From the NCBI RefSeq assembly GCF_057098645.1, contig NZ_CM169472.1: a stretch of DNA of 64,000 bases. One strand, written 5' to 3'. Made by a program: the position numbers. Of the stretch, positions 36,101 to 42,100 are shown piece after piece. The first letter of the stretch is position 1, and the number at the start of each line of letters is the position of its first letter.

Positions 36101-39100
36101 CTGACGCGCCTGCCCTGCTGCTCCCAGAAATCCGCCCCTGCCCAGCGGTCAGAACGCAGGGCAAGACCAATTTCCACATTGGCGTGTTTTGACATGAAAC
36201 CGCGGAAAGTCTCTTCCCCGGCTTCCCGGGCTTTACGATACTCCCGGTACAGAAAGGCCTCATCCACCGAATAGCCGAGATTCGGGTTAACCATGGCGAG
36301 GTTTTCCATCAGCAGGTGAGCCCCGCTTTCCACCATTTCAGGAGGATGCTCAAAAATCACCGGCAGAAAGTGCGGATCATGAATTTTGCCGTCACGGACA
36401 TCCCGGGCGTACTGCAGTTTCTGCCTGAACACCCCGGCAGGCGGTTCATTCGACTGGGTGGTTGTGTACACCACAAACCCTTCCGGACGTGAAGCCAGCC
36501 CGCCGATGGCTTCACGTAGCATGTCTTCCGCTTTGTACTGCTTGCCAAACAGCCACAGTTCATCAATCAGTGTCCCCACGGACTTGATACCGGACACCGT
36601 ATTCGGATCGGCTGCCACCACCTTCAGGGTGGTGTCCGTCACCCGATGGGTGATGGTCCGGATATGTGTCTGCACCTGACAGAGGTCATCCAGATCATCG
36701 TCCCGTCGTACCATATCCCTGGCAGGGTTGAAGGCGTTAGCCGCCACCTCCACGGTCGGGGCCAGAATGGTGTAGCCCGCCGCCTGCCGCCAGTTCAGTA
36801 ACAGCGCCGTCATCATGATCCCCGCGGCCAGCGTGGACTTACTGTTTTTCTTGGGGATAAGGATAAACACTTCCTTGATATGGCGAACACCGGTCTGCGC
36901 ATCGTAGGAGCCAAACAGGGCCGCCACCAGGTCAAACACCCACGGTGCACAGGACTCCCCGAATGTCGGGCTACCCGGTGCATCCACAATCCGCAGTTGT
37001 TTAAAAATCGCCAGTGCATGTGCAGCCTGGTCCGGATAAATCGGAGCCGGAATAATCGACAGCCCCTTTTTCAGGCGCTCTGCCCAGTCCGGGCAGGCCG
37101 TGCTCCACACAGGTATCATCCGTTGCCCTCATTATCATTATTCACCACCAGGCGGGGTGGTGGTGGCACCGCAAAACGGTTAGCCGCTTTTTTCGCCGCG
37201 TCACCTTTTGCCGATTTTTTACCGGCATCCCCTTTTTTGTGGTGCGTGAACTGCGCCAGCTTATAAGCCGCATCCAGCGCCAGCCTGGGGTCGGTATTAA
37301 TGTTCTCCACCAGAAGACGCCCCATCGCTTTCACCGGATCGGGAAGACCGTCCTCCATATACTCAATACCAGGAGATATCACCACGGGCGGTGGCATCTC
37401 CGGATTTGTTTCGTCCGGCTGTGGTATTGCAGCCGCCTCACGGCGACGGGGTTTATCCTCCTGCTCTGATTTTTTCTGCCGGTAAACAGGAACCTCATCC
37501 ACCTCCACCGTCTCGCATTGTTTACGGGCTATAAACGCAAGCACCTCCGGATCTTTTGCCAGCTGCGAGCCTTTAACCCTGGCGGTCTTCGCCGAATAAC
37601 CAGCGGCAATGGCTGACGCTGTTTTGTTTTTCCCGGACATGAGCGCCAGCGCAAATTTTCGTTTTTGCGTTGTCAGCACAGCCTCCTCCCGGGTCCAGAA
37701 CGCACTCAGCCGGGTATGGTTCAGCCCATTTTTCCCGGCGTCTCATGCCGCAAATGTTAACTGCTGCCTGGTTAACATTTGCTGAAAAAGCCAGTTAACA
37801 TTTTTTCCGCACAACAAACTGAATAATAAAGATAAAAACCGCAAAAATGCCCGGACAGCCAGTTAACATGTTAACTGCCCTGAAACGGGAATTTTTTCTC
37901 TGCGTGAGAGGGGGCGCGGTGTCCGGAGCGATCGTTTTTTTCGCCGGATGATCCCCCGTTACTTTATTCGAACCCCTTATAATGGGGTGTTAGCCAGCCA
38001 GACCCGGCATGATTACTGCCCCCAGTCGTCCATGATCCGGGGGGTGATGTCACCGGGTCTGGTGGGGCGCTGGTAACCGCTAATAGGGGTCAGGTCAGGC
38101 ACTTTTGCCGGGACCGTCTGTAACGTGGATGCCGGTACCTGCTCCCCGTGGTTATCTGGTTAACCCATATACAAGGGAGACAGAATGACCGAATCCAGCG
38201 ATTACGAATCCGTCCAGGTCTTTATCGGCGTTGATGTCGGTAAAGATACGCATCACGCTGTAGCCATTAATCGTTCAGGTAAACGCCTGTTCGATAAAGC
38301 ATTACCCAACGACGAAAACAAACTCAGGTCGCTAATATCTGACCTGAAACAACATGGTCAGATACTGCTGGTTGTTGATCAGCCAGCTACCATCGGTGCG
38401 TTACCTGTCGCCGTTGCCCGCTCAGAAGGAGTCCTTGTCGGATACCTCCCTGGACTGGCCATGCGCCGCATAGCCGACTTACACGCCGGTGAAGCTAAAA
38501 CTGATGCTCGTGACGCTGCCATCATTGCCGAAGCTGCCCGTACCCTGCCTCACGCGCTACGCACGCTGAAACTGGCTGACGAGCAAATCGCCGAACTCTC
38601 CATGCTCTGCGGCTTCGATGATGATCTTGCCGCACAGACAACGCAGGCCAGCAACCGTATCCGCGGCCTTCTGACCCAGATACATCCGGCACTGGAGCGC
38701 GTTCTCGGTCCGAGACTTGATCACCCGGCGGTACTCGATCTTCTCCAGCGATATCCCTCACCAGAAAAACTCGCTTCGCTGGGTGAGAAGAAGCTGGCAG
38801 CCCAGCTCTGCAAACTTGCGCCTCGTCTGGGTAAACGCCTTGCAGCAGACATAGCTCAGGCACTGGCCGAACAAACCGTCGTCGTTCCCGGCACGAATGC
38901 CGCTGCCGTAGTACTGCCACGTCTGGCACTCCAGCTCATCACGCTGCGTAAGCAAAGAGACGAGGTGGCGCTTGAGGTAGAACAGCGAGTTCTTGCTCAC
39001 CCTCTTTACCCGGTCCTGACCAGTATGCCCGGAGTCGGTGTCAGGACCGCAGCCAGACTCCTCACCGAGGTCGCCTGCCGCGCCTTCGCCTCTGCCGCAC

Positions 39101-42100
39101 ATCTCGCTGCTTATGCTGGCCTTGCGCCGGTAACTCGGCGATCCGGCTCGTCAATACGCGGTGAGCATCCCTCGCGACGGGGTAATAAAGCTCTCAAACG
39201 GGCGTTGTTCCTGTCGGCCTTCGCCGCGCTCAGGGATCCGCTCTCCAGGGCTTACTACACCCGCAAAATGAGTCAGGGAAAACGACACAATCAGGCGCTT
39301 ATCGCCCTGGCGAGACGACGCTGCGACGTTCTGTTCGCCATGATGCGCGACGGGACTTTTTATACCCCGCAGGCGTCATAACATGCTTGACAACTTAATA
39401 GGGGCACCCCCCCGAAAGGCTCTGTGGTTGGTATGCGCCGGGCGTGGCGCAGATACAAAAAAGGCCCGCAAAAGCGAGCCGGGAAAATAAGTGTAGCGCG
39501 TTGTACTGGAGTCGAACCAGTGACCGATTGCTTAGAAGGCAATTGCTCTGTCCTGCTGAGCTAACAACGCAGAATACCGATAATGGACCACCACCGGGGA
39601 CTCGAACCTCGCACACTCAACTTAAAGGGTTGACGCTCTTTCCTGATGGCTAGTGGCGGTTGGTGGCCCTTGCTGGATTTGAACCAGCGACCTGGCGATT
39701 ATGAGTCGCTCGCTCTCACCACTGAGCTAAAGGGCCGGGCGCAGGATAATAACGTTACGAAATCAATGTTGCAAGCATACAAAAATCACCCTTATCTCCT
39801 CCACCAGCGCATTCACCATGTCTATCCGAGATAAGTGGCACAACAAAACCCGCTTGTGGGCGGGTTTTGTTTGCTTTTGCCATCACGTACAAAATCGGCA
39901 AAATATCAGATTTGCATAAAATATATGCCTTTCAATCTACTTTTGCAACACTTTGCTTTGAAAATGCCGCCTTTTGTTTTGAACGTGTTCTCATTACAAA
40001 TAATAAAGCCTCACTATCCAGTCGGTGAAAAATGTGTTTCATTGCAACCCAGTGACGAGTAAATGTTTTGGACCAGTTTTTAGTTGTCACTCCCGCCAGT
40101 AATGCCAGCTCCTGATATTCATAACCTTCCCCACCAAAAAGTTCTGCTTTTACTGCCTGCGCCGCCAGCCAGATTAATTTTTTCAGGCGTTCCTGCGTTT
40201 TCCCAGCAATTTTTCTGGTACCGGATTGAGTATTAAATTCATTCCACGCCCACTGTGTTATCGCGATCTGATATTCCCAACAAATACTCCCGCTGTAACA
40301 CCACAACAACCAGGCTTTATGATGTTCTTCAAGAGACAGAACAGCCCGCCGCCACGATGATGTCGAAAACTCAACCGGACTGACCAGAGGAATTGACGTC
40401 ACCTTCGCCAGCGATTGCTTTCCCGGGATTGGTGGATTATCCCGCGTTATCATTTTTCCAGTCACTTCATCGCGGTACCGGATTTTTTTTCGCCTGTAAC
40501 GCCCTGTATCGAACATGGCATTCTCCTGCCAGGCTTCAAGCTGACCTTTTGTTGCCCCACTCAAATCAGCGGTGGCGATAATGAGCTGCTCACGCACAAA
40601 CTGTAAATAGTGGTTATTCATGCGCACTCCAGTTCTGTGATTTTTATCCCCAGCCGCCCACCAGGAACGAGCTGACCGCGCACAATATTGATTTCATCAA
40701 ACTGCTCGTCGTCTATGAGAAGTCCGGCATGCGTCAGCACATCCAGTGGTGCTTTCAGGATATTGTCCAGGTCACGACGGCGCTTATCCGGTGGCTCTGC
40801 AATAATCTTTATCACCAGCCTTCCGGACAGGTTTAATTTCAGCCGCTGCTGGCGAACAATTAGCGCCACATCACGGCGATAACGCTTTCCGGCTTCCGAG
40901 ATGAAATACGTATTGCCATGACGTCGCCAGTAGGTATTCACCGTCGGCGGGTAAGGCAAAACAAATTCTATCCGTTCAGTCATTCATGCTTTCCACTTCA
41001 GGACACCCGAATTTCTCGCGTGCATTAAAAAACGAATCAGCAACAACAGCTGGCTGCCGTGTTTTTCTTCAAAATCTTTTACCCCAGCGTGCAGTTCGTT
41101 ATGACATTTACGGCACAGCGGAATAACAAACAAATCATCAGCCTTTGTTCCCATCCCTCCCAGTCCATGACCAATGATGTGATGCGGATCATCTGCCTGA
41201 TTACCGCACGTCATGCATTTCTGCGTTTTTACCCAGCGCGTGTATACAGGCATCTCTTCCCGTTGTGGTTTCTGGCGCTGGAGATACTGAGCCGGTGACT
41301 CCGGATCAACGGCAATGCTGACCACCGTCTTTTCCTGTGGCGGGTTTTGCTGGTGGGCGTGAGGCAGCGGCGCAAGATTTTTTGTGCGCTGCTTCAGTAT
41401 GATGGTGGCGGTCTGCTCTCCCGGTACGATGTCGCTTTCACGGTACATTGAGCGGATTTTTTCCGCACGCAACCCCAGCGAACGACGTAATACCGCTTCC
41501 GGTAGCGCGTCCGCCACCTGATTGCGGACCGCCCACCAGGATAATTCAGCCAGAGATAATTCACGCTCCTGCGTACCGCTTATTGCGTGACCGATGACGT
41601 CAATCATCCATGCTGACAGGTTTTGATGAGCAAGTTGCTCGAGTGATTCGGATGTCTGGTCACGCAGCTGGTTGTCGCAGTGCCAGCACAACACCATTGC
41701 GCCGGTACCATAACGGTGAATAACGGTTTCACTGTGATGATAGTCACCATGAGGCCACTGGCAGGATTTGACATGACGCAACAGCCAGTCAGACAGTGCA
41801 CCAGCGCCACCAACAGCACGAATCACACGCTCATTGCTGAAAAACGGCAGTAATGATTTATCCTCCGCCAGCGGCTGGCGAACTGCAGGGACGATGCCGG
41901 ACGGCAGACCGCGCATGCTTTTCGGTTCCGGCTCCACAAGCACTCGAGGGTTATGGAATACCTGCATGGATTCACGGCCTGGTTTAAGGACCACCAACCC
42001 AAGTTCCGGTACCGGAACAGGTCGAAGTAATACCCGCACGTTACCTCCAGATGCGTTGCTGGAATGTGCGGGACGGACGCGGTGGGCGCTCGGAGTACGG

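Follow-up and report, generated by a model that had tools for sequence, protein, structure and literature searches.

The window analysed here comprises 64,000 nucleotides of contig NZ_CM169472.1 (RefSeq assembly GCF_057098645.1) and is E. coli chromosome, with prophage-type sequence around the mobile element that is the subject of this study. By the evidence of its sequence, this element, at 37958-39406, is an intact copy of ISEc20, a catalogued insertion sequence of E. coli and Shigella that belongs to the IS110 family. We hold it very likely that the copy is intact and probably active, and that it is an IS110-group element with a predicted bridge RNA in its left end; we place it in that group because of the domains of its enzyme, the lack of inverted repeats, a long left end, a predicted promoter split between the two ends, a three-part RNA and candidate donor guides that covary with the ends. 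Sequence relationships put it in the clade of the founder element IS110 itself, together with ISBma3, ISSfl4 and ISSgr1. The identity of the element, its boundaries to within the flanking runs of C, its poly-C targeting, the covarying RNA fold and the intact enzyme are all directly supported, as are the complementarity of the donor loop to the ends of the element and its covariation with them. An original prediction, made from the window sequence alone, had proposed an IS110-family element at this position with a guide RNA in its 5' flank, and the family assignment is borne out by the Pfam domains, the NCBIfam model NF033542 and the RefSeq name.

Identity, distribution and boundaries

The extent of the element and of its short right end are as follows.

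37958-39406, plus strand: integrated body of ISEc20, 1449 bp, GTTACTTTATTCG ... AATAGGGGCA, common to copies with different flanks
39382-39406, plus strand: right end, 25 nt, terminating AATAGGGGCA

RefSeq annotates the element, under its ISfinder name, as 'IS110-like element ISEc20 family transposase', with 99.9% identity in a megablast search that used 37800-39500 as the query against 5426 complete E. coli genomes; 7409 places in them match, and 1119 of the genomes have one place that covers at least 80% of the query. It also occurs in the prophages of Shiga toxin-producing E. coli and on plasmids of Shigella and E. coli, one of them named pINV, where close copies are called ISSfl4. Copies are 99-100% identical to one another and are found at dozens of different sites.

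This abundance of copies allows the element to be delimited. The comparison sample consisted of four E. coli records, 22 viral contigs, two reference genomes and 67 metagenome contigs, and among the 59 distinct flank combinations represented the sequence common to all copies is 37958-39406, starting GTTACTTT... and finishing ...AATAGGGGCA. The sequence evidence suggests that one C after 39406 also belongs to the element. A scan of genome contigs for the left-end pattern gave two loci only, and the target statistics presented below rest on the viral and metagenome contigs and the E. coli records.

The original prediction had given the element a span of 37880-39480, with about 300 bp of 5' non-coding sequence, and had supposed that boundaries cannot be fixed from a single copy. 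Comparing copies fixes them to within the flanking C-runs, and the outer parts of that span fall away: 37880-37952 is prophage DNA that is also found at empty sites, and 39382-39480 beyond 39406 is C-run and prophage DNA. The 5' non-coding end is therefore 227 nt long (37958-38184). The comparison with an uninterrupted prophage region that had been suggested as a check proved feasible, since the same site is found empty in other strains, and it delimits the body. The upstream stretch is indeed non-coding, with no long open reading frame on the plus strand, and its description as GC-rich holds in so far as its GC-content exceeds that of the whole window, but only modestly (56% vs 50%). The expected absence of inverted repeats was also confirmed, as none of the 16 inverted pairs returned by a repeat search joins the two termini.

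The transposase

The coding part of the element consists of one gene with its ribosome-binding site.

38185-39381, plus strand: transposase/recombinase gene, 398 aa, supported by the open reading frame, Pfam and NCBIfam
38173-38179, plus strand: ribosome-binding site AAGGGAG, read from the sequence, ending 5 nt before the ATG

The 398-aa product has the two domains that had been predicted for it, with Pfam DEDD_Tnp_IS110 (PF01548) matched over the full model at residues 14-168 (1.4e-48) and Transposase_20 (PF02371) at residues 277-358 (3.7e-21). It matches the NCBIfam equivalog NF033542, 'IS110 family RNA-guided transposase', with 239.2 bits against a cut-off of 140, covering model positions 1-342 of 343, and its sequence is that of WP_001358663.1, which several other copies are annotated as encoding. 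In its C-terminal domain it aligns with the solved transposases of IS621 and ISCro4 (1.2e-14 and 2.6e-12) across the SGSS serine motif, the RRSGSSIRG stretch of the ISEc20 protein lying opposite ESGSSVRG of the IS621 chain 8wt6_A, and the N-terminal acidic motifs GVDVGK and KTDARDA likewise align with IS621 (8wt6). In IS621, S241 of the Tnp domain forms a 5'-phosphoserine intermediate (PMC11208158); this residue would lie in the ESGSSVRG stretch, bearing in mind that the chain numbering may differ from that of the paper. Alignment across both the acidic and the serine motifs indicates that the enzyme is complete and not truncated. The possibility, raised in the original prediction, of a transposase truncated or inactive relative to the family consensus thus finds no support in a protein that is full length, identical to WP_001358663.1 and above the NF033542 cut-off.

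One NCBI genome carries a 530-aa protein that combines Phage_AlpA (PF05930) with an ISEc20 transposase at 99% identity; this probably results from read-through or faulty annotation where an insertion lies in a prophage regulator gene.

A structured RNA conserved in the left ends of homologues

Between the left terminus and the transposase gene lies a predicted RNA of three parts.

37971-38150, plus strand: predicted bridge RNA, about 176-180 nt, from a covariance-model match
37972-37988, plus strand: 5' stem-loop, with four of its five pairs changed on both sides across 11 elements
37997-38063, plus strand: first large stem-loop, read as the target-binding loop, on which the minimum-free-energy fold and the alignment agree
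38064-38146, plus strand: second large stem-loop, read as the donor-binding loop, with a basal helix of 38065-38070 with 38141-38146

The sequence at 37972-38147 folds as a 5' hairpin followed by two large stem-loops (-82.6 kcal/mol, z = -2.7). Homologous elements were found in Burkholderia (ISBma3), Ralstonia and Duganella at about 80% protein identity, and in Arthrobacter, Streptomyces (four elements), Corynebacterium and Rhodococcus at 50-70%. All of them share the ends and C-run flanks of ISEc20, and their left ends can be aligned with its own; ISEc20 was aligned with ten homologues from outside E. coli to give 11 elements spanning Proteobacteria and Actinobacteria. RNAalifold recovered the three-part structure from this alignment, 14 of its pairs having changed on both sides. 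Across the paired positions 93.5% of cells are paired, a share that falls to 39-53% once partners are shifted by 1-3 columns, and the observed values were reached by none of 500 shuffles on any measure. The basal helix of the first loop has 11 pairs with 96.7% of cells paired, and compensatory changes affect four pairs each in the 5' hairpin, in this helix and in the six-pair basal helix of the second loop.

A covariance model (R1) was built from the ten sequences from outside E. coli alone. Searched against the 64-kb window, it returned a single significant match, at 37971-38150 on the plus strand, over the full model length (147.8 bits, E = 3.8e-37). With its covarying helices, this match bears out the structured RNA that had been suggested, as a possible guide, for the 5' flank, and it meets the objection that neither flank might hold a structured RNA conserved across homologues. 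An RNA of this kind in the downstream stretch 39382-39480, which had also been proposed for searching, was rejected: the element occupies just 25 nt of it, a right end too short for anything resembling a bridge RNA.

Candidate guides in the donor loop

The second large stem-loop contains copies of both termini of the element.

38082-38092, plus strand: candidate left donor guide AAUAGGGGUCA, in the same sense as the right-end terminus AATAGGGGCA
38120-38127, plus strand: candidate right donor guide GUAACGUG, the exact reverse complement of CA-C-GTTAC (ends joined through one C)

The left candidate matches the right end exactly over 9 nt, which was reached by 8 of 5000 shuffles, and the right candidate has an exact match of 8 nt (21 of 5000); no shuffle among the 5000 produced both. 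The donor-binding loop of IS621 has a sense guide on its 5' side and an antisense guide on its 3' side, and the second loop of ISEc20 has the same geometry (PMC11208160, PMC11208158).

These matches persist where the termini themselves have changed. In Duganella and Corynebacterium, right ends reading ...ATAGGGACA (GGGA) occur with guides AUAGGGAC, and in two Streptomyces elements right ends reading ...ATAGAGGCA (GAGG) occur with CAGAGG guides; at the opposite terminus, S. anulatus has an ATTAC left end with a GUAAU guide, and GTTAT left ends are accompanied by AUAAC guides. The donor guides track the ends from GGGG to GGGA, from GGGG to GAGG and from GTTAC to ATTAC or GTTAT, and this covariation is seen in Duganella, Corynebacterium and three Streptomyces elements.

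Poly-C targets and the target loop

The element sits within a run of C, and the first large stem-loop of its RNA contains segments that correspond to such a run.

37953-37957, plus strand: left half of the poly-C target, C5 directly 5' of the element
39407-39413, plus strand: right half of the poly-C target, C7, its first C probably element-derived
38015-38023, plus strand: candidate left target guide ACUGCCCCC, in the same sense as the preferred left flank (C)TG-C4-5
38037-38046, plus strand: candidate right target guide and handshake dinucleotide CCGGGGGG-UG, antisense to the right junction CA-CCCCCC-G

The target of ISEc20 is a poly-C tract. In 49 distinct left contexts the left junction always reads X-C(3-8)-GTTAC, with C4 or C5 in 82%, and right junctions usually have C4-7. 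The bases before the left C-run are weakly favoured, with G at -1 in 25 of the 49 contexts, T at -2 in 22 and C at -3 in 18. Empty alleles are known for four sites. The window site, which lies between the small-subunit terminase gene of a lambdoid prophage and the tRNA-Arg gene of a tRNA cluster, and where the element interrupts no gene, is empty in six genomes that read GGATGAT-C(5, 7 or 9)-GAAAGG; among them is O145:H28 strain RM12581, with C7, and RM13514 matched at the same length. The empty alleles of pac that were retrieved have C7 or C8 and are frameshifted in both forms, an intact reading frame needing C9; the empty spacer between yaiO and frmR has C8 or C9; and empty yecD reads GATG-C5-T-C5-GCT.

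The length of the target tract varies between strains, for which ordinary slippage and an excision footprint of ISEc20 are both conceivable, and in strain 2013C-4974 the yecD tract is C5-T-C4 and frameshifted. The only other homopolymer of C or G of at least 7 in the window is a G7 run at 46675-46681; read on the minus strand it is a C7 run flanked as cag-CCCCCCC-tgt, and it resembles an unoccupied ISEc20 target.

From their sequence, the guides of ISEc20 appear to be set to runs of C. A repeat finder returned, unprompted, a pairing of 38036-38046 with 39405-39415 at 91% complementarity (pair I10), and the terminal UG of the right target guide faces the CA of the right end. Handshake guides are described as pairing with the other partner after strand exchange, and the UG arrangement fits this description (PMC11208158). 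The segment GGGGGGUG is kept in nine of the 11 elements, the exceptions being B. pseudomallei ISBma3, with GGGGGGUA, and the Rhodococcus element, which is one G shorter.

The predicted circle junction, its promoter and the crossover

Joining the two ends in a circle would bring together the halves of a promoter.

39387-39392, plus strand: TTGACA, -35 half of the predicted circle-junction promoter, in the right end
37960-37965, plus strand: TACTTT, -10 half of the predicted circle-junction promoter, in the left end

When the ends are joined with 0, 1 or 2 C, the two hexamers are 16, 17 or 18 bp apart. TTGAC(A/G/C) stands at the same distance from the terminus in all homologues for which the right end was recovered, and their -10 half, TACTAT or TACCTT, is placed in the same arrangement. 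Given a one-C join, the circular-junction promoter that the original prediction had expected to emerge from a comparison of copies would be TTGACA-17 bp-TACTTT, conserved in relatives. A junction with exactly one C is favoured on three grounds: the occupied yecD allele differs from the nearest empty allele by the body and one C, GUAACGUG matches a one-C join perfectly, and one class of right junctions, described below, always has one C. A TATAAT at 37978-37983 was considered as a promoter for the RNA and rejected, since it falls within the 5' hairpin loop, lacks a -35 and shows no conservation among relatives.

The crossover would lie within GGGG-C-A-C-G-TTAC, and the cores CA, AC and CG are all compatible with the yecD case. 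Observed copies keep the target C on the left and the donor A on the right, with the sole exception of one array unit that ends GGGGCC instead of GGGGCA. Predominantly top-strand insertion has been proposed for another IS110 element in a recent preprint (10.1101/2025.10.25.684509), and it would yield the pattern of C on the left and A on the right. When viral contigs were scanned for CACGTTACTTTATTCG, as a left junction or a join, two chance matches came up, neither of them related to the element.

A second class of right junctions consists of the right end, one C and GTTA(C/T), followed by unrelated DNA. Five sites in viral and metagenome contigs of E. coli have it, as does one Arthrobacter plasmid, and in three further E. 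coli records an RE-C-GTTAC junction (RE, right end) is indicated by matches of 156-157 nt that reach 6-7 nt past the right end. At the naive partner sites the sequence is C(1-5)-GTTAC, and two cases combine left and right flanks that map to separate loci; for one further copy, the search for an empty site gave only diverged matches. These junctions may have arisen when the right junction recombined with a genomic sequence resembling the left junction, producing a deletion or rearrangement; alternatively, the element may have inserted at look-alike sites. Both readings would involve the right donor guide.

ISEc20 also forms head-to-tail arrays with a period of 1453 bp, joined as GGGGCA-CCCC-GTTAC with C4 between units, of two copies in NZ_CP024616.1 (plasmid pO177B1) and at least three in NZ_CP024056.1. 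In an Arthrobacter plasmid, the right end of a neighbouring element of the IS110 clade is joined through CCC to the left end of the copy we retrieved, the two right ends reading GGGGCA and GGGACA. We rejected the C4 join of the arrays as a circle junction and read it as re-insertion into a flanking C-run; the tandem arrays fit re-insertion into the run beside a resident copy.

Alternative explanations

Several observations weigh against the interpretation of ISEc20 as an RNA-guided element. Rfam 15 has no family inside the element, either at gathering thresholds over the whole window or at E <= 10 on 37600-39700, where only chance-level matches were returned. We found no experimental studies of ISEc20, ISSfl4, ISBma3 or ISSgr1, names that turn up only in genome surveys. 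All 11 elements examined target C-runs with nearly the same target loop, and the choice of poly-C could in principle be read by the protein instead of the RNA. C5 and G6, the candidate guide segments, can pair with each other, so that the free RNA is predicted to close the target loop, and the apparent guide signal is partly explained as an ordinary helix. The target-guide step is the weakest link of the argument. Donor and natural targets differ in the presumed crossover region, with A in the former and C in the latter (CAC vs CCC). The number of C gained on insertion is inconsistent among sites, at +1 for yecD, 0 to +2 for pac, +1 or +2 for the yaiO-frmR spacer and at least +3 for the window site, differences that tract slippage probably explains. 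Finally, no sigma-70-like promoter was found for either the RNA or the gene inside the integrated copy, a lack that agrees with the circle-dependent expression of the family.

The near invariance of the target loop across the clade, with no covariation with targets to be seen, the helix that C5 and G6 could simply form and a literature search that returned no experimental data on ISEc20 would all suit an explanation in which the structured left end does no more than serve as a 5' untranslated or regulatory region, providing a promoter half or translational control, and the protein itself recognises poly-C and the ends. We consider this improbable. In the second loop, sense and antisense copies of the termini stand in the same order as in IS621, and these copies change with the termini in Duganella, Corynebacterium and three Streptomyces elements, which a leader of this kind does not predict. 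The enzyme, moreover, passes the NCBIfam equivalog for RNA-guided IS110 transposases, and the upstream non-coding region of ISEc21, another element of the IS110 group, is required for circle formation and transposition (PMC11187229).

The lack of a promoter-like site found in the integrated copy, expected for the family, would also fit a fixed and inactive relic of ISEc20, which we regard as very improbable: the reading frame is intact and encodes the same protein as many other copies, copies that are 99-100% identical occupy dozens of different sites, the same prophage site is empty elsewhere (RM12581 and RM13514 included) and head-to-tail arrays exist. An element of the IS1111 type, with its guide (seekRNA) downstream of the transposase gene, would have the same pair of protein domains, but this reading carries next to no weight and is already refuted by the anatomy of the element, with a right end of 25 nt only, no subterminal inverted repeats found and a long non-coding region with a structured RNA upstream of the gene, as well as by the table of Durrant et al. 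2024, which assigns ISSfl4/ISEc20 to the IS110 group and their RNA to the left end.

A proposed model for insertion

That the RNA is made, binds the enzyme and directs recombination we infer by analogy with better-studied members of the family, and the model that follows is conditional throughout. By analogy with IS621 and ISEc21, ISEc20 would excise as a circle with its ends joined as ...AATAGGGGCA-C-GTTACTTT.... The joined ends would set TTGACA 17 bp from TACTTT and allow transcription from about 37972, at the foot of the 5' hairpin, yielding the bridge RNA of about 176 nt and then the transposase mRNA. In the donor loop, AAUAGGGG(U)CA would represent the right-end terminus in the same sense and GUAACGUG would be antisense to the junction and the start of the left end; in the target loop, (A)CUGCCCCC would correspond in sense to the left target and CCGGGGGG-UG would be antisense to the right target, its final UG pairing with the CA of the right end after strand exchange. 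The DEDD/Ser recombinase would rely on this pairing to insert the circle, by recombination, in a poly-C tract of about 9-11 C, with a weak preference for (C)TG ahead of the tract.

We also advance, tentatively and as the less probable part of our interpretation, the idea that the founder-IS110 clade (ISEc20, ISSfl4, ISBma3 and their relatives in Streptomyces, Arthrobacter and Corynebacterium) is a bridge-RNA variant locked onto homopolymeric C tracts. Were this so, the C5 and G6 target guides would pair and close the target loop in the free RNA, and the donor A would confront the target C at the crossover, where the only product seen is the one that top-strand transfer would be expected to give. 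The right donor guide would capture genomic C-GTTAC sites and cause element-driven deletions or rearrangements, recorded as the RE-C-GTTAC junctions, and re-insertion into the C-run of a resident copy would build head-to-tail arrays.

Comparison with known systems

The closest parallel with a studied element is provided by IS621, whose bridge RNA of 177 nt, guide rules and junction promoter have been described (Durrant et al. 2024, PMC11208160; Hiraizumi et al. 2024, PMC11208158). Both elements encode a DEDD RuvC-like domain and a Tnp domain with an SGSS motif, and have a long left end without inverted repeats; the -35 lies in the right end and the -10 in the left, an arrangement that is predicted for ISEc20. 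The predicted RNA of ISEc20, at about 176 nt, has the length and layout of its IS621 counterpart, a 5' hairpin and two loops, in each of which the 5' side carries a candidate guide in the sense orientation and the 3' side an antisense one, and its UG extension on the 3' side matches the terminus of the other partner in the manner of a handshake guide. The differences begin with the protein, which in ISEc20 has 398 aa against 326, with extra residues between the domains, and aligns significantly only over the C-terminal domain (1.2e-14). The original prediction had taken this greater size as a sign of a less studied subgroup; the size difference stands, but the subgroup is the clade of founder IS110. 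ISEc20 has a homopolymeric C tract for a target in place of the mixed 14-nt site of IS621, and because of this its target guides are mutually complementary; it also lacks a CT core, having CAC at the donor join as against CCC in natural targets.

ISEc21 resembles ISEc20 as an E. coli element of the IS110 group; its guide, a seekRNA of the IS110 type, is encoded upstream of the transposase gene (tnp), and it forms a circle with a junction promoter, as is predicted for ISEc20, and makes no target duplication (Siddiquee et al. 2024, PMC11187229). It belongs to another clade, and its target is a conserved stretch inside transposase genes of the IS3 family (PMC11187229). Both IS621 and ISEc21 have been examined experimentally (the latter in PMC11187229), whereas ISEc20 is known here from sequence.

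Nearer relatives are ISSfl4 (98% protein identity to ISEc20), ISBma3 (about 80%) and the Streptomyces elements including ISSgr1 (55-64%). With IS110 they share ends of the form (G/A)TTA(C/T)... and ...ATAG(G/A)G(G/A)CA, poly-C flanks and the same RNA architecture, and they differ in their hosts and in point differences in the ends only, each with its counterpart in the donor loop. Durrant et al. 2024 (PMC11208160) placed ISEc20 in one protein cluster with IS110, ISBma3, ISSfl4 and ISSgr1, and Supplementary Table 5 of that paper lists ISSfl4, in the same cluster as ISEc20, as group IS110 with 'Detected Bridge RNA End: LE', that is, the left end. Some relatives are already named 'RNA-guided transposase' by NCBI. 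The IS1111 group (ISEc11, IS4321/IS5075, ISPa11) has the same pair of protein domains and RNA-guided target choice, but a guide RNA downstream of tnp and subterminal inverted repeats, neither of which is present in ISEc20.

Novelty is low, as the element is catalogued and its cluster has previously been listed with a left-end bridge RNA. The 5' region had been called uncharacterised in the original prediction, which is correct in that we found no experimental study and incorrect in view of the listing of ISSfl4. We found no paper that describes the homopolymer target of ISEc20, its self-complementary target guides or its absent CT core.

Other features of the window

Beside the insertion site, ARAGORN calls a tRNA-Lys (anticodon ttt) at 39584-39659 on the minus strand, between tRNA-Arg (tct) and a tRNA with anticodon cat; the call is below the Rfam gathering score, and RefSeq annotates only tRNA-Arg and tRNA-Ile in matching loci. 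An ALIL pseudoknot (Rfam RF01497, 120.9 bits) lies at 8293-8409 on the plus strand. We take this to be a frameshift signal of the IS3 family, in which case the window presumably holds a second, unrelated insertion sequence. Rfam gathering scores are also reached by a Trp operon leader at 12184-12277 (plus strand), a sok antitoxin RNA at 43020-43169 (minus strand) and a DicF RNA at 50286-50337 (plus strand).

Significance

In the window, ISEc20 is a catalogued insertion sequence that lies harmlessly between prophage genes and has little effect on annotation, and the known mechanism of the family is unchanged by these findings. Poly-C homing, the RE-C-GTTAC junctions and the mismatch between donor and target are details of modest interest and stand as observations only. 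An element present in about a fifth of complete E. coli genomes is nonetheless worth knowing, and since poly-C tracts are few and prone to mutation, its insertion sites, such as pac, yecD and the yaiO-frmR spacer, should be predictable. The clade is suited to asking how bridge recombinases handle a repetitive target and a donor/target mismatch at the crossover, and how often a donor guide causes off-target rearrangements.

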